In this document: positions 5,436-28,520 of the stretch, in pieces | Layout of the letters: the number at the start of each line of letters is the position of its first letter | How positions within the stretch are numbered: position 1 is the stretch's first letter | Source: Deltaproteobacteria bacterium | GTDB taxonomy: Bacteria; Desulfobacterota; Dissulfuribacteria; Dissulfuribacterales; QOAL01 | Length of the DNA: 32,792 nucleotides | Direction: 5' to 3' | Assembly: GCA_027025395.1 (NCBI GenBank) | Contig: JALVQQ010000191.1 | Location: 1-32,792 of the forward strand | Translations under genes and position numbers: made by a program | Notes under the pieces: model-generated | The model's input: only the letters and a program-made list of their open reading frames with translations | Told to the model about the DNA's origin: nothing | Databases searched by the model: none

Positions 5436-6880
5436 TCACCCTTCGAGGTCGGGACTGATATTGGCAAAACCTGTTGCAAGCTCCAGGTTGTATGCTGCCC
5501 GCAGGAGTTTTTCTTCCTGAAAGTGATCAGCCATTAACTGCAATCCAACCGGAAGCCTGCCGCCAGCCAGGCCGCAGGGCACGGACATGGCCGGAATACC
5601 GGCAAGATTCACCGGTATTGTGAATATGTCAGACAGGTACATCTGGAGCGGATCATCCACCTTGTCCCCTATCCTGAATGCAGGGGTTGGGGCCACCGGG
5701 GCGGCAAGCACATCACATCCTTCTTCGATAAAGGCGTTCTTGAAATCTCTTGTTATAAGGGTTCGCACCTGGGATGCCTTTCGGTAAAAGGCGTCATAAT
5801 ATCCTGCGGAGAGGCAGTATGTGCCTATCATGATGCGGCGTTTGACCTCGTCGCCGAAACCTTCGGTGCGCGTGGCCTGGTACATCTCCATGAGGCTTGA
5901 ATAGTCGCTGGCCCTGAATCCGTACTTTACGCCATCATAACGGGAAAGATTGGAGGAGGCCTCGGCAGGGGCTATGATATAGTAGGTGGCCACTGCATAC
6001 TGGGTATGAGGAAGCGAGACTTCCCTTATCTCTGCGCCCTGGCCTGCAAGCGCCTCGATTCCGCCACGCACCAGTTTTTCAACCTCGGGATCAAGCCCTT
6101 CAATGAAATACTCGGACGGCACCCCCACGGTAAGGCCTTTCATGCCCTTGACCAGGCTTTCGGTGTACCTTGGCACCGGCACGTCAGCCGAGGTCGAATC
6201 CCTGGGATCATGGCCCGATATTGCTTCAAGCAGGATGGCGCAGTCCCTGACATCCCGGGTAAGGGGCCCTATCTGGTCAAGAGATGAGGCAAAAGCCACA
6301 AGACCGAAACGGGATACCCTGCCGTATGTGGGCTTCATTCCCACCACGCCGCAGTGAGACGCTGGCTGCCTGATGGAGCCGCCGGTGTCTGAACCAAGGG
6401 ATGCAACACATATCCTGGCTGCCACCGCCGCGGCTGAGCCGCCGCTGGAGCCGCCGGGAATACGATCAAGGTCCCAGGGATTTCTCGTCTTCATGAATGC
6501 GGAATTCTCGGTGGAAGAGCCCATTGCAAACTCGTCCATGTTCAGTTTGCCAAGCATGACCGCCCCCTGGCTGTAGAGGGGACAAAATTCTCAAGCATGC
6601 GTGAAGCACAGGTGGTGCGCACACCCCTTGTACAGATAAGGTCCTTGATTCCAAGGGGTATGCCGGAGAGCGCCGTGGCCCTGCCCTTGCCGATTTCCCG
6701 CTCAGCCTGCTCCGCCATGTTGAGCGCGGCATCCCCGGTAACGGTAATATATGAATTTACCTTCCTGTCAACCGTGCTGATTCTTTCAAGATAAGCTTTC
6801 ACAAGCTCCCGCACCGAGACATCGCCAGCATGCAGCGGCTCCTGAAGCTCATGAAGTGTCAGGCCGGTGAGATTATCCAT
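5436..6880 (-). pseudogene. gatA: Asp-tRNA(Asn)/Glu-tRNA(Gln) amidotransferase subunit A, frameshifted by an internal deletion near 6578
   Basis: ORF 6542..6880 gives the GatA N-terminus (GIPLGIKDLICT...[13 protein letters not shown]). ORF 5436..6557 gives [33 protein letters not shown] and [10 protein letters not shown]. The frames differ and the conserved PYDATV segment is absent. Could be an assembly artefact. Confidence 0.9.
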
Positions 6881-6973: not shown

Positions 6974-7261
6974 TCATATAATCCTCGGAACAATAAAGGC
7001 GCCATCCTCTTCCTCCGGGGCATTGGATACCGCATCCTCTACCCGCAGTGACGGTTTTGCAATGTCCTGTCTGAAGACGTTTGTTACATGAAGCGCATGA
7101 GTCGTGGGCTCAACTCCCTCTGTATCAAGCTCTTCAAGCTTGGCCACATAACCAAGTATATCATTGAGCTGGTCCGCAAAGGCCTCCAGTTTTTCATCAG
7201 TAAAGCTGAGCCTGGCAAGCTGCGCCACATGTTTCAATTCTTCAATGGTTATCCTTGACAC
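6974..7261 (-). CDS. gatC: Asp-tRNA(Asn)/Glu-tRNA(Gln) amidotransferase subunit C
   Basis: ITIEELKHVAQLARL...ILGYVAKLEELDTEGVEPT...NAPEEEDGAFIVPRII. GTG start at 7261 is preceded by a GGGGAG SD (95 aa); directly upstream of gatA. Confidence 0.95.
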   Translation of the reverse strand: MSRITIEELKHVAQLARLSFTDEKLEAFADQLNDILGYVAKLEELDTEGVEPTTHALHVTNVFRQDIAKPSLRVEDAVSNAPEEEDGAFIVPRII

Positions 7262-7773
7262 TTGAAAATACTCCCCTATATTGCCTTGTACTGTCCGCTC
7301 CAGACGGTCTGTCAAACTCTGGCCAGAGAGTGCTCTGCCGGAGCAGTCCAGATCATTCGCCTCTCCTTTCACGGACAGGCTGAAGGCGTGAAGACAAAAA
7401 CTCCGCCTGCAAGCCTCTTAATAACATTAATACAACAAACAGGCATGCCCAACAACGAAAATAAGGCCTTTCGGGCATCAACACGGCCAAGCATGCCCGC
7501 AAGCATGTCAAACCGGCAGGCGCGCACTACACATTCCTGCTGAACCGGCATCTTGCACGGCTTCACCAGCCCTGCAGGCAGAAATTGTATATACATACAC
7601 CTCGCACGCCCTTTCTCTGCCGGAAGCTGCCTGCGGCTTTACAGGCGCCATCTCTTCCGAACCTATATACAATCAGCGCGCAAGGTATATCAACATATCG
7701 CCTTTTAAAGCCATCATGCCGCAACAGCCTGCTATGGAGTGCACAGCATCATTTTACGTTTGTTATTTATCTG

Positions 7774-12307: not shown

Positions 12308-13564
12308 TCAGAATGTCCAGCTGAATGATACGTTTGCTATATGGGCATCTCCCTTGTATGTGCCCTTAAGGGTGGGGGTCGCCTTCTTGCCGACCTTGGC
12401 GTCCTCAACAGCCACGTAGGAGTATGCGGCATCAATGGTCAGCCGGTTCCAGCTCCAGCCCACGCCGAAACCGAAGATATTGCGGTCATTGGTGGAGAGT
12501 GACGGATCCCTGAAATCATCATCAATGGGTGACTCATCCCATGCGTATGAAAGCCGGAATGTCCACTGATCGTTCAGATAATACTCAGCGCCCAGACGGA
12601 TACACCACACGTCATCCCAATCCTTTTCCACTTCCACAATGCCCTCCTGGCCGGTTCCGGGTTGCTTGTCATAATTGAATTTGAGGTTTTCATATGCTGA
12701 CCACTGGGTCCACTGCAACTCTCCGGAAAACCGGAAATTTTTCAGCACGGTTGTGGATACGGCGAGAGAAAGCGTTGCCGGCAGATCCATGGGGAGGGTT
12801 AAATCACTTTCCGGGAACTTGCCGTTCATAACCGCATCGTAAGGCGGAGGCAGTGCCGGAAGCTCATATTTTGCGTCTCCGTCTATCCTGGTGCTTACAT
12901 GTGAATGATATGTAATTCCAAAACTCCAGTCATCAAACGGAACTGCCATTGCGGAAAGGACATAACCTGCTCCCCAGTCATCCCCTTCAACATCGGTATA
13001 GACATCTCCAAGAGGGGTAGGGATAAACTTTCTCATCTCTGCATCCACGTACACCACCTGCAGGCCAGCCGAAACCGAAAGCCAGTCAAACAGCTTTCCG
13101 GAAACGGCAGGCGTTATGTATATGGTGGAAAGCTCCGTGTACTGTGCATAATAGCGCCCTTCCCAGTGGTTATCCCACTCTGTTGTGAGACCGTAGGGCG
13201 CATTGATGGAAAGAGAGGCCCCGAACCTGTCCATAAATGGCATTGCGCCATACATATAGGGTACAAGATAGGCTATATGCTTGAGATTGTGATCATCCTT
13301 GTCATTATCAAGCTCCATGGACGGAAAAATCAGGGCGCCTCCGGCAGTAACGGCCGGCCGGTCCAGAAGGGCCGCGCCGGCAGGGTTGAACCACGCACAC
13401 TCGGCCACATCATGCCTGGCGGACATTGCCGCGCTGTTACCCATCGCCTTGGCGGAAAGCTCATTAAAAAGCTGAAACCCGGCCGCCTGAACGCTGTACG
13501 CCCTGGCGCAGAAAATAATTACAGCAGCAAGCAAGCAAAAACTCCCGGTTCTTTTAAACATCAT
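12308..13564 (-). CDS. fadL: FadL/OmpP1/TodX family outer-membrane long-chain fatty acid/hydrocarbon transporter
   Basis: Signal peptide, then mature N-terminus AGFQLFNELSAKAMG, WFNPAG, APYGLTTEW and C-terminal SFSWTF. SD GGGAGG precedes ATG 13564. Confidence 0.9.
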   Translation of the reverse strand: MMFKRTGSFCLLAAVIIFCARAYSVQAAGFQLFNELSAKAMGNSAAMSARHDVAECAWFNPAGAALLDRPAVTAGGALIFPSMELDNDKDDHNLKHIAYLVPYMYGAMPFMDRFGASLSINAPYGLTTEWDNHWEGRYYAQYTELSTIYITPAVSGKLFDWLSVSAGLQVVYVDAEMRKFIPTPLGDVYTDVEGDDWGAGYVLSAMAVPFDDWSFGITYHSHVSTRIDGDAKYELPALPPPYDAVMNGKFPESDLTLPMDLPATLSLAVSTTVLKNFRFSGELQWTQWSAYENLKFNYDKQPGTGQEGIVEVEKDWDDVWCIRLGAEYYLNDQWTFRLSYAWDESPIDDDFRDPSLSTNDRNIFGFGVGWSWNRLTIDAAYSYVAVEDAKVGKKATPTLKGTYKGDAHIANVSFSWTF

Positions 13565-14078
13565 ACCCTCCCTAAGATATAAAATTTCAGGCAAATCTGG
13601 CCCGGCGACCTGGCTTGAGACCATGCCCCGAGGGCAATCCCAGGCAGCCTGCCATCCCCAATGCAATAATCATGGCTGGCGCTGCCCCGTGCTGAACAAC
13701 CTGCCCTGGCTGCGCCGCGCCTCTCAACACGCACAAAAGGGCTTCTCAACAAATCCGGGCATTTTCTGAATGTATCTGCCTCAAAGGCGCAACAGATACA
13801 GGCAGAATGCGCTACAGACATTTTTTTTGGCCTGTCTGCCTGCAAACGCCCTGGACGCTGTGGTTGACGGCGCTCCGGACGGTGACTTTTACATGCCGCC
13901 TGACCGAATTCATCAAGGAGCCAAATCTTCATATTTATAACACAGATTCTCATCAATTACAAAATTACTGGCCGGGATGCGTGCCGGTACAACTGAATAT
14001 AAACCACCTGAAAATCAACCGGAGACAACCGTCATTACAACCCTTACGCCGCGGGCGCGGAAACCTGGACATCAAAAC

Positions 14079-14104
14079 AAAAAAGGGGGCGTCAAGCCCC
14101 CTTT
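14079..14104 (-). terminator. Rho-independent terminator of the cytochrome-porin operon
   Basis: AAAGGGGGC-GTCAA-GCCCCCTTT hairpin; on the minus strand it is followed by a T-run, about 40 nt after the porin stop. Confidence 0.85.
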
Positions 14105-14145: not shown

Positions 14146-16554
14146 CTAGAATGCATAGGTAAGGTAGCCCATTACAAACTGGGCGGTATTGCCCTCGTCA
14201 CCATAGACGTATGGATCATCATCGTCAAAATGGGTGAAGTAGTAGTTGAGGCCGATACCAACCCCGCTGTCCAGCATGTATGAAGTCCCTATTGAGAAGT
14301 CAATCTGCTGGTAATCAAGATTTGAATATTTGTCTATGCCATTGATGTACGCCACATCGTAGAGATAGGGCTGAAGGGGATTCTGCCCGGCGCTTGTCAT
14401 GGTATAGGCGTCCAGCTTTGCATCTCCGGTGGGATACATGCTGTCAAAATCGAGCTTGTCTATATCTCCACGTCCTATGGTCCAGCTGAAGTCAGTGGTG
14501 ATATTCCAGTTGGGAAGAATCTGGTATGCAATGTTTGCAACAAATGAATGGGCCTCGGTGTAGTAATCCATATCGGTCTTTTCCGAACCAAACTGGTCCG
14601 TTGTTATGAAGTTACCTCAGCCGTCGTAGATGGCTATACAGTATTGCGAATCGTAACTGTCATACATGTATGTATAGCCACCGGATATTGTGAGATTGCG
14701 GATTGGATTGGCCATGATATTCAGACCTGTCATAAGGAGGTTGTTGCTCCAGTCCCTGCCGTCAAGCTCACCGTTCTTTGAGTAGCGGTACTTGACATGG
14801 AAGCTGGTATTGAGCATCGACATTGCGTTCCAGTAGGTCCTGAACTTGACCTCGTATATCTGGTCAGGCCTGTTGGAACGATCACCTGTGCGCTTGTCGT
14901 AGATTGCCGGCCCGTAGGCGCGGTCAAGGTCATAGAAATCAGCTGCATTCGGCTTGCTTGCATACCTGCCATAGGAGCCGTCAGGTGTGCATGAGGCATT
15001 GTTGAGCCTGTATGCATCATCTATGAAGGCCATCTTGTAATCAAGGGCGAATTTGAGTCCGTGCATCAGATGATAATCCGCACCGAACTTGAACAGATGC
15101 TCCTTGGTGCTCTCGGGGACACTGTGTACGTCGTAATGATCCCTGTTTTCCTCTGCGAATTCGTACTCTCCCTTGATCTTGAGGTTACGCAGCACCCTCC
15201 AGGCGGCGTTTACACCCACCTTGAAGTTATTGCTGTCATAACCGGAGAGCCGCTCATACTCCGGCTCAATGTACTCTTCAACCGCTGCCGGATCCGCGCC
15301 ATGAGCAATGTATCCCTCGGCGAGGGTCATGGTGTCGCCGGACTTGGTATTGTTCCTGTTCTGGACCTTTTCAACATATACATCCGAGTTGTCCAGGGCC
15401 TGATACTTGCCAAAGATATTAACGGTAAGGCCTGGCATGACCCTGGCGGTAATCCTTCCGCCAAACGTATTGTCCTTGAGCTTGAGAGAATCATCATAGT
15501 TGCCAGTGAGCACATCATAGGCCCCGCGCGTGGATGTGTTCTTGTTATTTGAGTAGAGATAGAACGCATTCAGCGTGGTGTGCCCGTTAATGTCCCAACG
15601 GAACTTCGCATTGTGCTTGTTCCTGCGGTTTTCAGGGACCTCCGCATAGGGCAGGGGGCCGCTGGCGCTGTTGTACTGGACCCTGTTAAGGAAATCCTCT
15701 CCCACCTTGCCCTTGGTGTTGTTATAGAGATTCTCCATCTCTTGATCATCAGTATTGAACTCCCTGTGCATGAAGGAATAGTTGAACGCCATTGTGCCGA
15801 TACGCAGGTTGAGTTCCGGACCGAACTCGTTGTTGGTCTCCTTGATCTCCTTTGTGTCGGACACAATGTGACATGCGCGGCACTTGCTGTTGGTCATGGC
15901 CTGCCTGTCGCCTTTTCTCTGTTCAAACCTGTGATGCAGGGTCAGGTCAAACTCCGGCACGTTCGGGATATGGAACGCCACGGAATGTTTGAGCAGCTCC
16001 CTGCTGATGGCATACTGGTTTGTGGGGTCACGGTCGGTGTGGTAAACCGAGGCTGTGCCGATTGTATTCGCCCCTCCGGTGTTATAGGTAATGCCGGTTT
16101 CAGGATCGGTTCCTGTCCTCGGTTTCTGGCCCTTCGGCTTGTTTGTGCTGAACACATGCGCCTCGAGATTGTCAAGGCTCACATGGCCCAGCCTGTGATA
16201 CAGGCGGTTGTAGTCGGCCTTGTAAACCATGACCCTTCCGAGCGAGAGCATTCCCTCATAGTCCTGATCGTTGAGATCACGGTACAGGCCGTCAAAACTC
16301 AGATCAAGGACACCGCTGTTTACCCGGAGATCTCCCCCGAACACTCCTGTCCATCTCTTTGCTGCCAGGGCATTGTACTCAAGGCCGCCCTTTGAACCGC
16401 CTTCATCCGCATGGAGCCTGCCCTGGGCATTCCAGGTGGCGCCTGCCTTGAGGCTGCCTTCAAATACCTTTTCATCTTCCGCGGCGCATACAGAGGCCCC
16501 GATAACCGCAAGGGCCAGAACCGCCACTGTAATGAGAACTGAAATTCGTTTCAT
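14146..16554 (-). CDS. MtrB/PioB-like outer-membrane beta-barrel selenoprotein with CxxCH (802 aa, predicted Sec646; resembles the GSU2204-type CXXCH (seleno)protein family)
   Basis: ORFs 14617..16554 and 14146..14571 are in the same frame, separated only by TGA plus 15 sense codons. Signal peptide, amphipathic beta-strands on both sides of the TGA, CRACH at aa 225-229, YCIAIYDG-U, OMP-type C-terminus YLTYAF and a SECIS-like hairpin. Adjacent to a decaheme cytochrome. Confidence 0.88.
14575..14616 (-). promoter_or_regulatory. Bacterial SECIS-like element directly 3' of the in-frame UGA
   Basis: mRNA reads UGA GGUAACUUCAUAACAA CGGACCA-GUU-UGGUUCG GAAAAGACC: 7-bp upper stem (14600-14584), apical loop starting with G at nt 24 after the UGA, and possible lower pairing GGU/ACC and UUC/GAA. 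Confidence 0.78.
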
Positions 16555-16572: not shown

Positions 16573-17595
16573 CTATCGGGTAAGCCCATGTCCGCTCGTT
16601 ACGGTCTGGGATGGCATGTCAGAGCCATGTACCTGCTGGTGGCACTGGGTGCATTTTGTCATGAATGATTTCTGGAAACCAAACTCGGTGGGCTGGATCT
16701 TTCTGCCAGCCGCCTGCACCCTGGGCTGCCCCTTTGCAGGAATCGGAGACGCATCAACATTGTTTGACGCCCTTCCCGCATGGAAGTGGGCCTCATGACA
16801 CTGCAGACAGAGAAACGGCTCCTGCTGCTGCAGCAGATTGTTGGCCACCGTACCGTGCGGATCATGACACATCAGACAGTTTTCCACCACCGGATCATGT
16901 TCAAAGACAAATGGACCCTGATAACGGGTATGGCATGTGAGACACAGATCATTGAGGCGCTCGTCGGTACGGAGCATTCCCTCATCCATGCACTGGCTGC
17001 CGTGGGCATTGTGGCAGTCGGAACATGTCATCTTGCCCTCTTTTACCGGATGATGAGACATCAGATACATCTGCGCCATCACATCCTGGTGACACTGGGC
17101 GCAGAGTTTTGGCTCCTTCTCTTCGGCAAGCAGGTTCCTGTTTTTATTGCCGTGTATTTTATGGCACCTGGTGCAGGATACATCGTATTCCGCATGGGTG
17201 GAGCCAGGCCAGTTCATCTGGCCGCCAACGGTATGACACTGGGTGCATACACCTGCTATCTCCTCGGCCTCCATCTCATGGGAGCCGGGATTCAGTATCT
17301 TCTCTGTGTCTCCGTCATTATCCACATGAACCGAGCCAGGTCCGTGGCAACCCTCGCAGCCTGCATGATAACCGCCAGCCACTTCAAATGAAGCTATCTT
17401 CATATGGATATTATACTTGTCGTTAGCCATATCCTCATGGCAGTCCAGACATGTTTCACTCCCGACATAGGTAGCGCCAGGTGCTGCTTCCGGGGCCCTG
17501 ATAACGCTTGCCCTGTGCTCAAGAGGGTTATCCACCACCTGACAACCTGCAGCGAGAAACAGGCCCGCCGCCAGCATAATTAATTTTTTCAGCAT
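16573..17595 (-). CDS. DmsE/MtrA-family decaheme c-type cytochrome, lipoprotein
   Basis: Ten CxxCH motifs (CLDCH, CEGCH, CTQCH, CTRCH, CAQCH, CSDCH, CLTCH, CLMCH, CLQCH, CTQCH), MtrA-like GPFVFEHDPVVENC and HQQVHGSDMPS, lipobox LAAG-C and SD GGAGGG. Confidence 0.95.
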   Translation of the reverse strand: MLKKLIMLAAGLFLAAGCQVVDNPLEHRASVIRAPEAAPGATYVGSETCLDCHEDMANDKYNIHMKIASFEVAGGYHAGCEGCHGPGSVHVDNDGDTEKILNPGSHEMEAEEIAGVCTQCHTVGGQMNWPGSTHAEYDVSCTRCHKIHGNKNRNLLAEEKEPKLCAQCHQDVMAQMYLMSHHPVKEGKMTCSDCHNAHGSQCMDEGMLRTDERLNDLCLTCHTRYQGPFVFEHDPVVENCLMCHDPHGTVANNLLQQQEPFLCLQCHEAHFHAGRASNNVDASPIPAKGQPRVQAAGRKIQPTEFGFQKSFMTKCTQCHQQVHGSDMPSQTVTSGHGLTR

Positions 17596-23677: not shown

Positions 23678-24463
23678 CTATTCCTGCCCGCACGCCTTTT
23701 CCGTCATGCGCTCTGCTGCAAAAATGAGAGATTCAATGTCGAGAAATTCCAGGGCATTCCTGTCAAAAAGCACCTTTACACCGGCAGGAAACCCGTCATC
23801 TTCATCAGCATCCCAGAAATGGACCTGCACAGGCACCCTGGGCAGCACCGGAACCACGGCACAGAAATCGGCATGGCACTCATCCACCTTTCTTGCCCCC
23901 ATTCGGACCAGCACCCTTTCAAGCTCCCTTCCACGCCCCTGAAACTCACGTGCAAGCCTGTCCTCCGTGTACCTTTTGAGAGTTACAACCTTTGATATGG
24001 AGTTCGGGAAGGATTCGAGGCCTACCCAGTCTCCAGCGAGCCGCCCCGCTCCGCCAAAAAACAGGTAGTTATAGAGAAGAATCTGGTCTCTCGGGTCAAG
24101 CTCCCCCCCTGCTGAAGAGACCACGCTTTCGGATGAAATAAACACTGTCTCCCCAAGATACAACAGCCTTAGCATCTGTCTGCCATTCTCCTCCACAACC
24201 GTTCCGCCAAGCCCGGGGCCGCATTCCGCAAGGTCAACCGTGCTCACCTTTTTTTTAAGCGTTCTCAACAGCACAGTGTCAGGATCATGCACACGCTGGA
24301 TATCTCCCCCGCCTTCATTATCACCATCACGCTGAAGATATGGACAGGCGGACGGATCCGCACCGGCCGAAACCACGGCAACCGCAAAGGCCATGCAGGC
24401 AGGATAGCCACACTCACCGCAGTTGCTCCTCGGTGTCTTCTTAACTATGTCAAGCGCATTCAT
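23678..24463 (-). CDS. DUF3786 domain protein with N-terminal 4Fe-4S (CdhE/RnfB-type FeS) domain
   Basis: PRSNCGECGYPACMAFA...CPY at the N-terminus; QILLYNYL, VLPRVPVQVHFWDADEDDGFPA and LFDRNALEFLDIE typical of DUF3786. Start overlaps the upstream stop (ATGA). Confidence 0.82.
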   Translation of the reverse strand: MNALDIVKKTPRSNCGECGYPACMAFAVAVVSAGADPSACPYLQRDGDNEGGGDIQRVHDPDTVLLRTLKKKVSTVDLAECGPGLGGTVVEENGRQMLRLLYLGETVFISSESVVSSAGGELDPRDQILLYNYLFFGGAGRLAGDWVGLESFPNSISKVVTLKRYTEDRLAREFQGRGRELERVLVRMGARKVDECHADFCAVVPVLPRVPVQVHFWDADEDDGFPAGVKVLFDRNALEFLDIESLIFAAERMTEKACGQE

Positions 24464-26406
24464 GGATCAACTCTCCAGGCAGGCCGGTTATCACCCGCCT
24501 CCTCACCACAAAACATTACTCTCCCCTGCCCTGGCCCGACAAGCCGCCTCAGGGCCGACCGGAACCTTTCATACTCATCACCATGCCGCAACATGCCGCG
24601 TCTCAAAGAAAGCTCTCTAATGTAATAGACACCGCGTCCGTCCCTTGCGGCCATTACCTTCCAGGCAAAAGGGCCAGCATGCCCGCTGAGGCCAGCAGGC
24701 ATATACTCCACTCTTGCACCGGCGGGAAGCAGGAGCCTGAACACCAGCATCTCCCTGGCATATCCGGGAAACCAGACGGGATTTTTCCTGTCAGCCCCAA
24801 GCCGCCCCAATGTCTGCAGCATTGACGCCTCGGGCACAGGGAAGAAAGAACATCCCCCCGAGGCTGGCAACGGATCAGGTATCCTGAAATCCACCCGAAT
24901 GGTAACCGGCTGCATCAAATCATCGAGATTCATGAACTCGACCTGACCCTGGGCCAAGGGATCAACCGAATGCATCACCATGGACCTTGCCACATCCAGT
25001 TCAGGGCCGGAAAGATACCTGAACCCCCGGCGGGCATCAGCGGCCTTATAACCGGAGCTCAGTGATACTATCCGTCCGGACGTAACGCCGTCGGCATCAT
25101 AGGACACATCCACGGTGGTTATATCCATCTCCTGCCAGACATCATGAACGGGCTCCAGGGAGGCATCATCAAGGAATAAGGCCGTGTGTCCCTCAAGCCC
25201 GGTGACACCAGGTGAAAGCTCCTTGCGGTTGAAACGGTACCATTTGCCACCCGCCTTGACGGCGACCGCGCTGAAAAAATCCGGCATGAACGGCAAGGGC
25301 ACCTCTGATATGCTTACGTTGCCTGTAACCACCGCGATACGCGAATCTGTCCCGCCAACCCTTAGCAGCTCGTGAAACAGCCATGCCAGGTGAAAGGGCG
25401 TTCCATAACCACGGGAAAGCGTGGCCTCCGGACCCTGGGGCCGGAGATCGGTATCGAGAATATCAATGACATAAGGCGCAAAGAGTGACATCAACTCTGT
25501 ATAAAGAGAATCAGCATCACTGGCCGAACGAAAAATTGCGGGGAGCGCATCAAGCTCATATCCCGGTTCACGCCAAGGAACTATTGCGTTAAAAAAACCG
25601 GCCACCCGGGAATATGAAGAAAGCGTTGTGACCAGCAGCACAGGGCTCATGTGAATTGCTGGAGGGGAATACGGCTCGTCAACCGCCCTTGGCAGTTTCC
25701 CGGCGCGCCATACATACTCCTTCCACTCCCGGCCAGCACCCTGGTGAACTGTAATTCTTCTGTCATTTGCAACCCAGAAGAGGGGCATGGCCTTCGGCGC
25801 CCTTATACTGACGACCTTCTCCCTGGTGGGATTGGTAAGCGCGAAAAACTCCCTTGTCCAGAAGGCACTCATGCCGGGGCGTTGTGAATGCAGCGTGAAA
25901 CTCAACTCCACGGTGGCTCCAGGCTCCACCGACGGAAAACTGACCACCCGCAACCGTGCGGCCGAATATATGGAGGCCCCGGAAGTTGACGGGTCCTGTA
26001 TGTCGTTTATCTCGTCTTCACGCACGGCCACATGCGTGCCGTCCGCAAGGATTGTGCGAGTATGACGGAGATCTATGTCCAGACTCTCCCATGCGCTGTT
26101 GTAGGGAATCCGCACATCGCCATTACGTTTCTTGCCCCTGTATGTGAGTATCCTGGTCCGCATCAGGAGATGATAATCGTACGACCCGTCAGCATATAAC
26201 CGGTACTCTTTTTTAACCAGCAGGTTTACCGCATCAGCATCCGCATCATAGGAGTCGGCGTGGCAAGGCTCCAGCCTGGCGGCCGCGCCCGGCGCAACCG
26301 CGGCTCCCGAAACCAGGAAGGCAAGCAGGAATATCAAGGGCAGCCAGGCACGCCCCGGTTCATGCGCCCTGGAACTGTCCGTATCGCCACGGAATATTAC
26401 GCTCAT
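24460..26406 (-). CDS. Secreted DUF3857 protein with degenerate transglutaminase-like domain
   Basis: Signal peptide; DUF3857-like N-terminus (FPSVEPGATVE). The catalytic region reads GYGTPFHLA, without Cys. ATGA overlap with the upstream paralogue. Confidence 0.75.
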   Translation of the reverse strand: MSVIFRGDTDSSRAHEPGRAWLPLIFLLAFLVSGAAVAPGAAARLEPCHADSYDADADAVNLLVKKEYRLYADGSYDYHLLMRTRILTYRGKKRNGDVRIPYNSAWESLDIDLRHTRTILADGTHVAVREDEINDIQDPSTSGASIYSAARLRVVSFPSVEPGATVELSFTLHSQRPGMSAFWTREFFALTNPTREKVVSIRAPKAMPLFWVANDRRITVHQGAGREWKEYVWRAGKLPRAVDEPYSPPAIHMSPVLLVTTLSSYSRVAGFFNAIVPWREPGYELDALPAIFRSASDADSLYTELMSLFAPYVIDILDTDLRPQGPEATLSRGYGTPFHLAWLFHELLRVGGTDSRIAVVTGNVSISEVPLPFMPDFFSAVAVKAGGKWYRFNRKELSPGVTGLEGHTALFLDDASLEPVHDVWQEMDITTVDVSYDADGVTSGRIVSLSSGYKAADARRGFRYLSGPELDVARSMVMHSVDPLAQGQVEFMNLDDLMQPVTIRVDFRIPDPLPASGGCSFFPVPEASMLQTLGRLGADRKNPVWFPGYAREMLVFRLLLPAGARVEYMPAGLSGHAGPFAWKVMAARDGRGVYYIRELSLRRGMLRHGDEYERFRSALRRLVGPGQGRVMFCGEEAGDNRPAWRVDP

Positions 26407-28520
26407 AACCCCTGCCTTTCCGCATCAGTAAAGCGCGCGTCCGCGCCTTCCGCCATGCATCGGCCGTTTATAACAACCGGAACTGCCGGCCATTGGGCAA
26501 GGCGTCTCTGTGCCCTCAGCACCTCCGGGTAATCTGGAACCGGCACCTCCAGGGCCTTTATCTCAAACTCCCTGACAAAAACCAGTCTCTGTTCAGCATC
26601 ATCCTGTCCATTCCCGGTCCCTGTCCTTTTGACCCGAAAGGATGCCTCCACGGCGTTGCCGGAAAATTCCATATCCGCGGGAAGAATCATCCCGCCGTCC
26701 GCCCCCTGAGGCAGCACTGTCTCCTCGACCATGCGGCTTCTGACTACATAGTTGAAACGCAACGGAAATTCTCTCCTGGTCAGCGAGGCCCTGGACATGA
26801 GATAACTGTCCATGATCCCGACATAACCCGTATTTGAGACCGGGAAGAAGAGCGCCTGCCCTGCCTCTGTCCGGCTCACCCTGTCAGGCGCCTGGAAGTC
26901 ACAGGAAAATCCAATGGGCTTTGCCCGGTCTTCAGGATCGGTCCACTCAATATTCTCCAACCTTGCCCCTGGGATCCGGGCAAGGACTATCTGTTCCACG
27001 GTCTGCCTGCGCTTTTCAGGCGAACTGCCCATCATACGCCCCCTCAGAGCAGTATCACAGAAGCCGGTAAATGTCGCCTCCAGCCTGCCGCTGAGAATGC
27101 CGCGGAGATCAAGCCTGTCCCTTACAACCAGCAGGCTCGTGTTGGCAGCCGCATCAGGCTCCGGTGTCAGGCGCAGCCTGGCGTCAGGCCCTGATGCGGC
27201 AAGACAGCTTGAATCCCTTTCATAATCCGGCAGAAACTGGCGGCTGGTTTCCGAAGTGGGATCAAGATAGACCCCTGGCCTGCCCTGGGCATCAAGTATC
27301 GCCACAATGGCATGGTTAAACCAGGGCACCACAATCTCCTGATCCAGCCTGTTGCCCGCGCTTATTATCACCGGCACCGCATTGAATCCGGCATCCCTGA
27401 GCATTGTAACCAGCAGGGCTGCCTTGTCCCGGCAGACTCCATAGCGCCGGTCAAAGGTAAGGGACACGTCGTGAGGTTCATAACCCGGCCTGTCCCTTTC
27501 GGCTGTTATCCCCATGTAGCGGATCTTCTGTGCTACAAAGTAGAACAGGGCCGCGATCTTTTCCTGTTCGTTGCCGGCCCTGCCTACCAGTTCCCGCACC
27601 TTTTCCCTGATGGCAGGCGTGGAGGCAAGATGAGGCTCCACAAGCCCTCTGTACCACTCGGCGACATATCCCCATGCGGGAATGGTTGAATACAGCAGCC
27701 GCATTGCGACCCGGTGCAGGGGGGGCATGGCAGGCTCCGGCACGAGAGCCGGAACATCATTAAACGAGAAACGGCAGATTGTATTCCGGGACTCGTCCTT
27801 GCCAATCCAGGAGGAATAACGGCCCGGTTTTGCATCCTTCACAAGGGTATGGAGCTTCATGTCCCCTGGGCCTTTAAGCTCAAAACTATACTCCCTTACC
27901 GGAAACGTGTACTCAGCGGTGACCCTGCCAAAAAATTCCCCTGGTATCATGAATTTGAAGTTATTTCTGACCACTATGTAGTGTATGGTATCACCGGGAC
28001 GCAGCTCTGGCACAAACACCCTGAGTTCGCGCTGGGAGGGATCATATATGTTCATGCGGCTGGAAGAAGCTGAATTGTCCTCGCGCGCGTTTTTTTCCAG
28101 GTCAACCACACGAACAGAGCCGTCGGGAGATATTACCTCAAACAGCGGCATTTTGAGGTCCATGTAGTGACCATTGATATAAAACACCTGTACGCTGTTT
28201 TCCCGCACTCCATCACTGTCAAGCATTGTCAGAAAGACTTCGTCCCTATCCACGCTGCTTCCGTCCCGCCTGAACTCAATCCTCTCCACCTCCCTGGCAA
28301 GCACGGCATGATCGTGGGGATACCGCTCAGGGGTGACATCGCTCAAAAATGAATAGCCGGATGAGGCGCAAAAGGACTCTCCGGCGCACATGACTGAAAC
28401 AACGAACATGAGCAGGCACATGGCGGGGAAGCCGGGCCTGCTGCCGCTGCAAACCGGCATTGCCCCAAGCCCCCTGCCTGCCCTGCTGTCAATGCATTCC
28501 ATAAAGAGGTTTCTCCGCAT
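26403..28520 (-). CDS. Secreted DUF3857 and transglutaminase-like domain protein
   Basis: VPELRPGDTIHY, FVAQKIRY and a Cys-His-Asp triad (YGVCRDKA, WFNHAI, YLDPT). True start may lie downstream of 28520. Confidence 0.85.
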   Translation of the reverse strand: MRRNLFMECIDSRAGRGLGAMPVCSGSRPGFPAMCLLMFVVSVMCAGESFCASSGYSFLSDVTPERYPHDHAVLAREVERIEFRRDGSSVDRDEVFLTMLDSDGVRENSVQVFYINGHYMDLKMPLFEVISPDGSVRVVDLEKNAREDNSASSSRMNIYDPSQRELRVFVPELRPGDTIHYIVVRNNFKFMIPGEFFGRVTAEYTFPVREYSFELKGPGDMKLHTLVKDAKPGRYSSWIGKDESRNTICRFSFNDVPALVPEPAMPPLHRVAMRLLYSTIPAWGYVAEWYRGLVEPHLASTPAIREKVRELVGRAGNEQEKIAALFYFVAQKIRYMGITAERDRPGYEPHDVSLTFDRRYGVCRDKAALLVTMLRDAGFNAVPVIISAGNRLDQEIVVPWFNHAIVAILDAQGRPGVYLDPTSETSRQFLPDYERDSSCLAASGPDARLRLTPEPDAAANTSLLVVRDRLDLRGILSGRLEATFTGFCDTALRGRMMGSSPEKRRQTVEQIVLARIPGARLENIEWTDPEDRAKPIGFSCDFQAPDRVSRTEAGQALFFPVSNTGYVGIMDSYLMSRASLTRREFPLRFNYVVRSRMVEETVLPQGADGGMILPADMEFSGNAVEASFRVKRTGTGNGQDDAEQRLVFVREFEIKALEVPVPDYPEVLRAQRRLAQWPAVPVVINGRCMAEGADARFTDAERQGL

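Follow-up and report, generated by a model that had tools for sequence, protein, structure and literature searches.

Window studied here, positions 1 to 32,792 of contig JALVQQ010000191.1 of Deltaproteobacteria bacterium (GCA_027025395.1), raises the question of whether the TGA at 14617-14619 of its minus strand ends a gene or is translated. The codon separates two apparent open reading frames (ORFs), which an earlier note, made from the letters alone, had joined into one gene with a selenocysteine (Sec) at the TGA. Our analysis points the same way, and we put at about 0.93 the probability that, judging from sequence comparison, this in-frame TGA is a Sec codon within one 802-residue outer-membrane barrel protein.

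The codons that the note had quoted, TAC GAC GGC TGA GGT AAC TTC, are found on the minus strand, with the TGA running from 14619 to 14617. The upstream ORF (14617..16554, minus strand) encodes 645 amino acids (aa) ending in ...IYDG and stops at the TGA. After it, 156 further codons are open in frame, up to a TAG at 14146 (14146-14148, minus strand), and the 141-aa ORF called at 14146..14571 (minus strand) shares the frame of the 645-aa ORF, being the tail of one frame. The putative complete selenoprotein gene (14146..16554, minus strand) has 802 codons plus the TAG and would encode a GSU2204 family CXXCH-containing, MtrB-like outer-membrane barrel. Its translation meets no second stop, carries the candidate Sec at codon 646 and ends in ...MGYLTYAF directly before the TAG. 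The two apparent ORFs are joined as had been proposed, and both ends, YDG for a truncated product and YLTYAF for the read-through one, are seen in the translation.

Homologues of the read-through protein were searched in 401 genomes sampled from the phylum (E <= 1e-20), being found at 36 places in 33 genomes. Exactly one in-frame TGA is present in 34 of these places and none in the other 2, of which one is just 70 residues long, a fragment where a contig ends. For 30 loci the genes were rebuilt and aligned, with identities to the window protein from 51% down to 20%, and all 30 have the TGA at one and the same column of the alignment, in the context G-U-[GA]. The invariant columns of this alignment include G645, U646, C225, C228 and H229, the last three belonging to a single CxxCH that every one of the 30 proteins contains once. 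Beyond the aligned loci there are 5 full-length places, 2 with TGA, 2 with Cys ('GCFSES') and 1 with neither. Taken over all 35 full-length homologues, the column therefore holds TGA in 32, Cys in 2 and Ser in 1, a divergent paralogue. The note had proposed looking for such Cys/TGA pairs, and they exist; Trp, Arg or Gly, the residues it named as speaking against Sec, occur at this column in none of the 35. Two loci from metagenome-assembled genomes (MAGs) labelled 'Deltaproteobacteria bacterium', with 78-79% identity, also carry the TGA. In 23 of the 30 homologues, by hand count, a Cys stands seven residues before the Sec (C-x6-U), as does Cys639 of the window protein (14638-14640, minus strand), and it could be a selenenyl-sulfide partner of Sec.

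The frame behind the TGA is at least as well preserved as the one ahead of it, with identities to the window protein of 32.6% after the Sec column vs 28.1% before. When the 156 codons after the TGA are compared with those of the 78% identical locus L064, 57 differences are synonymous only and 18 change the amino acid, the pattern of a sequence under purifying selection. This conservation and the excess of synonymous changes argue strongly against a pseudogene and against a sequencing error. The C-terminal residue is F in 26 of 30 homologues, and in 5 homologues the terminal stop of the barrel gene is itself a TGA. If the TGA were a true stop, the locus would be a pseudogene or a split gene, with the 141-aa ORF separate or untranslated. 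Public annotation reads it so: in 11 of 11 close relatives the gene call ends at the TGA, covering only the pre-TGA part (627-652 aa), as the note had foreseen for standard annotation, and the failure to find a tRNA-Sec in the assembly (see below) would fit as well. A nonsense mutation, however, would not share one column in 32 homologues of 20-79% identity, nor leave behind it an open frame in which synonymous differences outnumber non-synonymous ones by 57 to 18. No family matches the 141-aa ORF by itself, and in the structural model described below the 645-residue product keeps just 21 of 26 strands, with the last strand missing, so that the model predicts a truncated product that would be non-functional. 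We consider a true stop hardly credible.

What could direct the insertion of Sec is a hairpin inside the coding sequence. A 7-bp stem with a GUU loop (CGGACCA-GUU-UGGUUCG), resembling a bacterial selenocysteine insertion sequence (SECIS), occupies 14584..14600 of the minus strand; the stem begins 17 nt after the UGA and the loop G is the 24th nucleotide after it. It is the 7-bp hairpin with a G-first loop that the earlier note had described. The 71-nt stretch around it folds with -18.1 kcal/mol (z = -2.46, equalled by 3 of 200 shuffles), which is modest alone. Much more telling is its recurrence: a contiguous stem of 5-9 bp with a loop of 3-6 nt containing or abutting GU is found after the TGA in 30 of 30 loci, far more than chance, since the same scan on other codons of the same genes gives a background of 1565 in 21707 (7.2%). 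The loop starts 22-23 nt after the UGA in 29 of the 30 loci; in the remaining one (L031) the longest stem from the scan has its start at 20, and the minimum free energy fold gives the usual GUU loop. When the 7-pair structure named above is imposed on an ungapped 48-nt alignment, 76.2% of the cells are paired, compared with 66.2 +/- 1.4 in shuffles (0 of 500 reach 76.2%); slid controls give 17-50%. For covariation, the score of 0.276 (vs 0.132) is reached by no shuffle out of 500, although the aligned sequences are mutually related and the shuffle control consequently overstates the significance. Compensatory changes can be seen at pair 23-33, being GC in 13 sequences, AU in 8 and CG in 8. The proposal of a SECIS-type signal is thereby strengthened by a hairpin conserved in all loci and covarying. 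In the SECIS of E. coli fdhF, too, a hairpin with G and U in its apical loop lies within the coding sequence, a short way behind the UGA. The two differ in sequence and in spacing, the loop G coming around 20 nt after the UGA in fdhF and 24 here.

The genome, a MAG of 2.53 Mb in 314 contigs and 90.8% complete, encodes most of the machinery for Sec. Profile searches found selB (344 bits), selA (592 bits) and selD (363 bits), all above their cut-offs. The selD gene has a single in-frame TGA of its own, in ...ASGUASKIGP (a GUxxK site), the known Sec/Cys site of SelD. Elsewhere TGA works as an ordinary stop, in accordance with the earlier note: it ends 586 of the 1094 genomic open frames with 300 or more codons, being the commonest stop of the genome, and 15 of the 22 larger ORFs of the window, fadL (12308..13666) among them; gatC (6974..7372) also ends in TGA. 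A genome-wide reassignment of TGA was thus rejected, and the code is unchanged. This bears on a further alternative, in which the UGA is read through as a residue other than Sec (Trp or Cys, for instance), whether through near-cognate or suppressor decoding or through a changed code. The Cys found at the column in two paralogues and the unrecovered tRNA-Sec could be taken in its favor, while Aragorn reported no tRNA with anticodon tca that might read UGA, only the normal tRNA-Trp(cca). A covarying hairpin at SECIS distance together with complete selA, selB and selD fits instead the needs of SelB-dependent decoding, and of 5 relatives with the same barrel gene, 4 possess a 98-nt tRNA-SeC(tca), the fifth being another fragmented MAG. 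Reading of this UGA as a standard amino acid is, in our opinion, very unlikely.

A sequencing or assembly error could also place a TGA within an open frame, and the source is indeed a fragmented MAG in which another gene of the window, gatA, is broken by a change of frame. The same TGA, however, is present in independent assemblies. Metagenome contigs from 4 runs of 2 studies cover the site, the best-covering run being labelled hydrothermal vent metagenome and perhaps representing the source sample. Among the best-supported differences listed for these contigs there is no variant at 14617-14619, and thus none of the TGG or TGC that the note had named as contrary evidence, whereas the neighboring third-codon positions 14605 and 14623 vary at high depth. 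As this check is made of contigs, with no listed piece spanning the whole 601-nt stretch, it is supportive only. We regard the chance of an error as negligible. In the same 4 runs, contig depth peaks over 14549-14679, around the TGA and the hairpin; this segment is common to many related organisms at >=85% in those samples, and its flanks are far less covered.

Several results weigh against the TGA being a Sec codon. The main one is that selC, the gene for tRNA-Sec, was not found in the assembly by three approaches: the best match to RF01852 in the genome (47.4 bits) is the tRNA-Trp(cca), none of the 41 tRNAs reported by Aragorn in the assembly has the anticodon tca, and blastn with the tRNA-Sec of a relative gave no match longer than 18 nt. 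Of the set selABCD that the note had wanted to see in the genome, selA, selB and selD are thus in place and selC is not. The miss is weak evidence of absence, since the assembly, broken into 314 contigs, reaches 90.8% completeness and tRNA-Asp and tRNA-Ile are missing from its tRNA set too, and it is probably an assembly gap. As for the hairpin, no Rfam family matched any part of the window at gathering thresholds, RNAalifold returned no consensus pairs from the ungapped 48-nt alignment, and in 10 of 30 sequences the loop of the best hairpin lies at least 1 nt earlier than +23. The RNAalifold result probably arises because the hairpin is one nucleotide further 5' in several sequences. On the protein side, a Pfam scan of the read-through product gave no family at E <= 0.1, MtrB_PioB (PF11854) included. 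Finally, the two paralogues with Cys at the column may be pseudogenes or may represent further recoding. Each of them has one other in-frame TGA, at residue 569 in L060 (G089:C41), where relatives have Arg, and at residue 228 in L062 (G139:C19), with GUKQ vs GWKQ and Trp in relatives. Another unusual copy, L030 (G106:C1:464848-466974), comes from a single-contig genome; it has the conserved TGA along with an in-frame TAG near the N-terminus and a 370-nt gap between barrel gene and decahaem gene, and may be a broken copy.

The insertion of Sec at UGA646 itself we infer from the conservation of the codon, the hairpin and the downstream frame, from the sel genes and from the family to which the protein belongs. 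The part before the TGA matches the NCBIfam model NF041027 (GSU2204_Se_pt_1, GSU2204 family CXXCH-containing (seleno)protein) with 422.9 bits vs a curated cut-off of 350. Residues 12-645 align with model positions 2-580 of 580, which puts the end of the model at the residue directly before the TGA, and no other NF041027 locus is present in the genome. The traits described for the family are all observed here, namely a single CXXCH, a candidate Sec codon right after 'part 1' (where the family has Sec or Cys) followed by a conserved C-terminal part, and a decahaem neighbor of the GSU2203 family. Nothing essential differs between this protein and the family, the window member coming from an uncultured 'Deltaproteobacteria' MAG lineage. 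The GSU2204 family is listed as a selenoprotein in tables of two reviews (PMC13188914 and PMC9312934). It is therefore already catalogued as such, in NCBIfam and in both reviews, and the novelty of the finding is low. In the literature, we were not able to find a primary description of the GSU2204 selenoprotein family, nor any experimental study of its Sec under GSU2204, NF041027 or Sec barrel/MtrB topics. The main text of PMC2398784, apparently the work cited by the review table, has no occurrence of 'outer membrane', 'cytochrome', 'MtrB' or 'heme'. One expression table (PMC4070692) gives GSU2204 as up-regulated with iron oxides. Another selenoprotein from an extracellular-electron-transfer cluster, ExtKL (NF040886) of Geobacter, belongs to the same broad group according to PMC5877670 and PMC13188914; comparing by description, ExtKL is a soluble or periplasmic multihaem cytochrome, whereas the window protein is a barrel.

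The fold was predicted with AlphaFold2 on the 30-sequence alignment, giving a mean predicted local distance difference test score (pLDDT) of 72.2 and a predicted template modelling score (pTM) of 0.69. The model has 26 long strands, mostly with pLDDT >90. The top Foldseek match is MtrB of the Shewanella MtrCAB complex (6r2q_B, E 3.7e-24, template modelling (TM) scores 0.60/0.72), and the next ones are TonB-dependent receptors with E 3.5e-11 or weaker and TM of 0.2-0.5. The likeness to MtrB lies in this best fold match, in the 26 strands and in a decahaem neighbor of the DmsE/MtrA type. In sequence, by contrast, the window barrel gives no detectable match to any solved structure, a profile search against PDB sequences having returned none at E <= 1. 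A precomputed PF11854 match exists for 2 of 11 database relatives. The window barrel has its own CXXCH and a candidate Sec, whereas MtrB is not known to have haem or Sec. It also differs from MtrCAB in that the operon in the window shows no MtrC-like gene as a third member.

At the N-terminus, the translation shows a signal peptide-like segment at about residues 1-24 (MKRISVLITVAVLALAVIGASVCA/AE; 16483..16554, minus strand), with a putative cleavage site, and the model places a helix at residues 2-23, covering it. The haem c binding motif CRACH corresponds to residues 225-229 (15868..15882, minus strand). The YLTYAF C-terminus (14149..14166, minus strand), with its terminal aromatic residue, resembles a beta-signal and belongs to the last barrel strand, at 789-801 in the model. 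Strands 7 and 8 are joined by the CXXCH loop (219-233), strands 21 and 22 by the Sec loop (643-655). Connections after even-numbered strands have 2-6 residues and most of those after odd-numbered strands are long. In outer-membrane barrels, long loops are usually found on the cell-surface side, so in the predicted model the CXXCH loop and the Sec loop are presumably both on that side. Both have pLDDT <50, which means that their mutual distance cannot be judged. The invariant His120 is near in sequence to the candidate haem/Sec site.

Upstream of the barrel gene, and ending 18 nt before it, is the gene of a GSU2203-family decahaem c-type cytochrome (16573..17595, minus strand) with 10 CxxCH motifs. 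Its product scores 441.5 bits vs a cut-off of 325 with NF041028 and 245.7 vs 192.2 with TIGR03508 (DmsE family). A homologue of this cytochrome is directly upstream and on the same strand in 30 of 30 loci; in L027 the start chosen for the barrel overlaps the decahaem match by 31 nt. From this gene adjacency we infer that barrel and decahaem cytochrome would form a complex. Genes for cytochrome c assembly are present in the genome. Judged by eye, the N-terminus of the cytochrome, MLKKLIMLAAGLFLAAGC, has the look of a lipoprotein-type signal and ends in Cys. On the other side of the barrel gene, an intrinsic-terminator-like hairpin followed by a T run (14082..14104, minus strand) is found 42 nt after the TAG, with no terminator-like site between TGA and TAG.

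Two other regions of the window deserve mention. The gatA gene (5436-6880, minus strand) is divided into two ORFs in different frames with a 16-nt overlap, the ORF at 6542..6880 matching positions 2-89 of the gatA profile and the ORF at 5436..6557 matching positions 105-463. The split comes from a frameshift or an assembly indel and involves no in-frame TGA. At 23678-28520 (minus strand), three consecutive genes of 261, 648 and 705 aa are almost without family matches, the sole one being of residues 1-46 of the 261-aa protein with the N-terminus of the acetyl-CoA decarbonylase/synthase gamma subunit.

The following route would account for these features. SelB, with GTP and Sec-tRNA(Sec), would bind the hairpin 17-33 nt downstream and deliver Sec at UGA646. 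The precursor would be exported through its signal peptide, a single c-type haem would be attached at CRACH, and the protein would enter the outer membrane as an MtrB-like barrel of 26 strands by way of the C-terminal strands encoded after the UGA. The barrel might then sheathe the decahaem cytochrome encoded upstream, as MtrB sheathes MtrA, the products of the two genes forming a porin-cytochrome conduit through which electrons would cross the outer membrane. For Sec, our best guess is a redox or ligand function beside the barrel's own haem.

In terms of annotation, the locus should be called as one 802-residue selenoprotein and not as a 645-aa protein plus an orphan ORF. The GSU2204 family is catalogued, yet we found in the literature no work on what a Sec does in a porin-cytochrome conduit of the outer membrane. 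Throughout the phylum sample, Sec, haem motif and decahaem partner are strongly conserved, which indicates that the residue matters for function. We also considered, as a rather doubtful but conceivable possibility, that the barrel is not a passive sheath and that its c-haem and Sec646, with His120 and the Cys of the C-x6-U pattern, make up a selenium-haem redox site. Such a site would stand in for a surface cytochrome of the MtrC type, serving the two-gene conduit as its terminal site of electron transfer or catalysis. If true, the active site of a selenoprotein would here lie exposed on the outside of the cell, which is rare.

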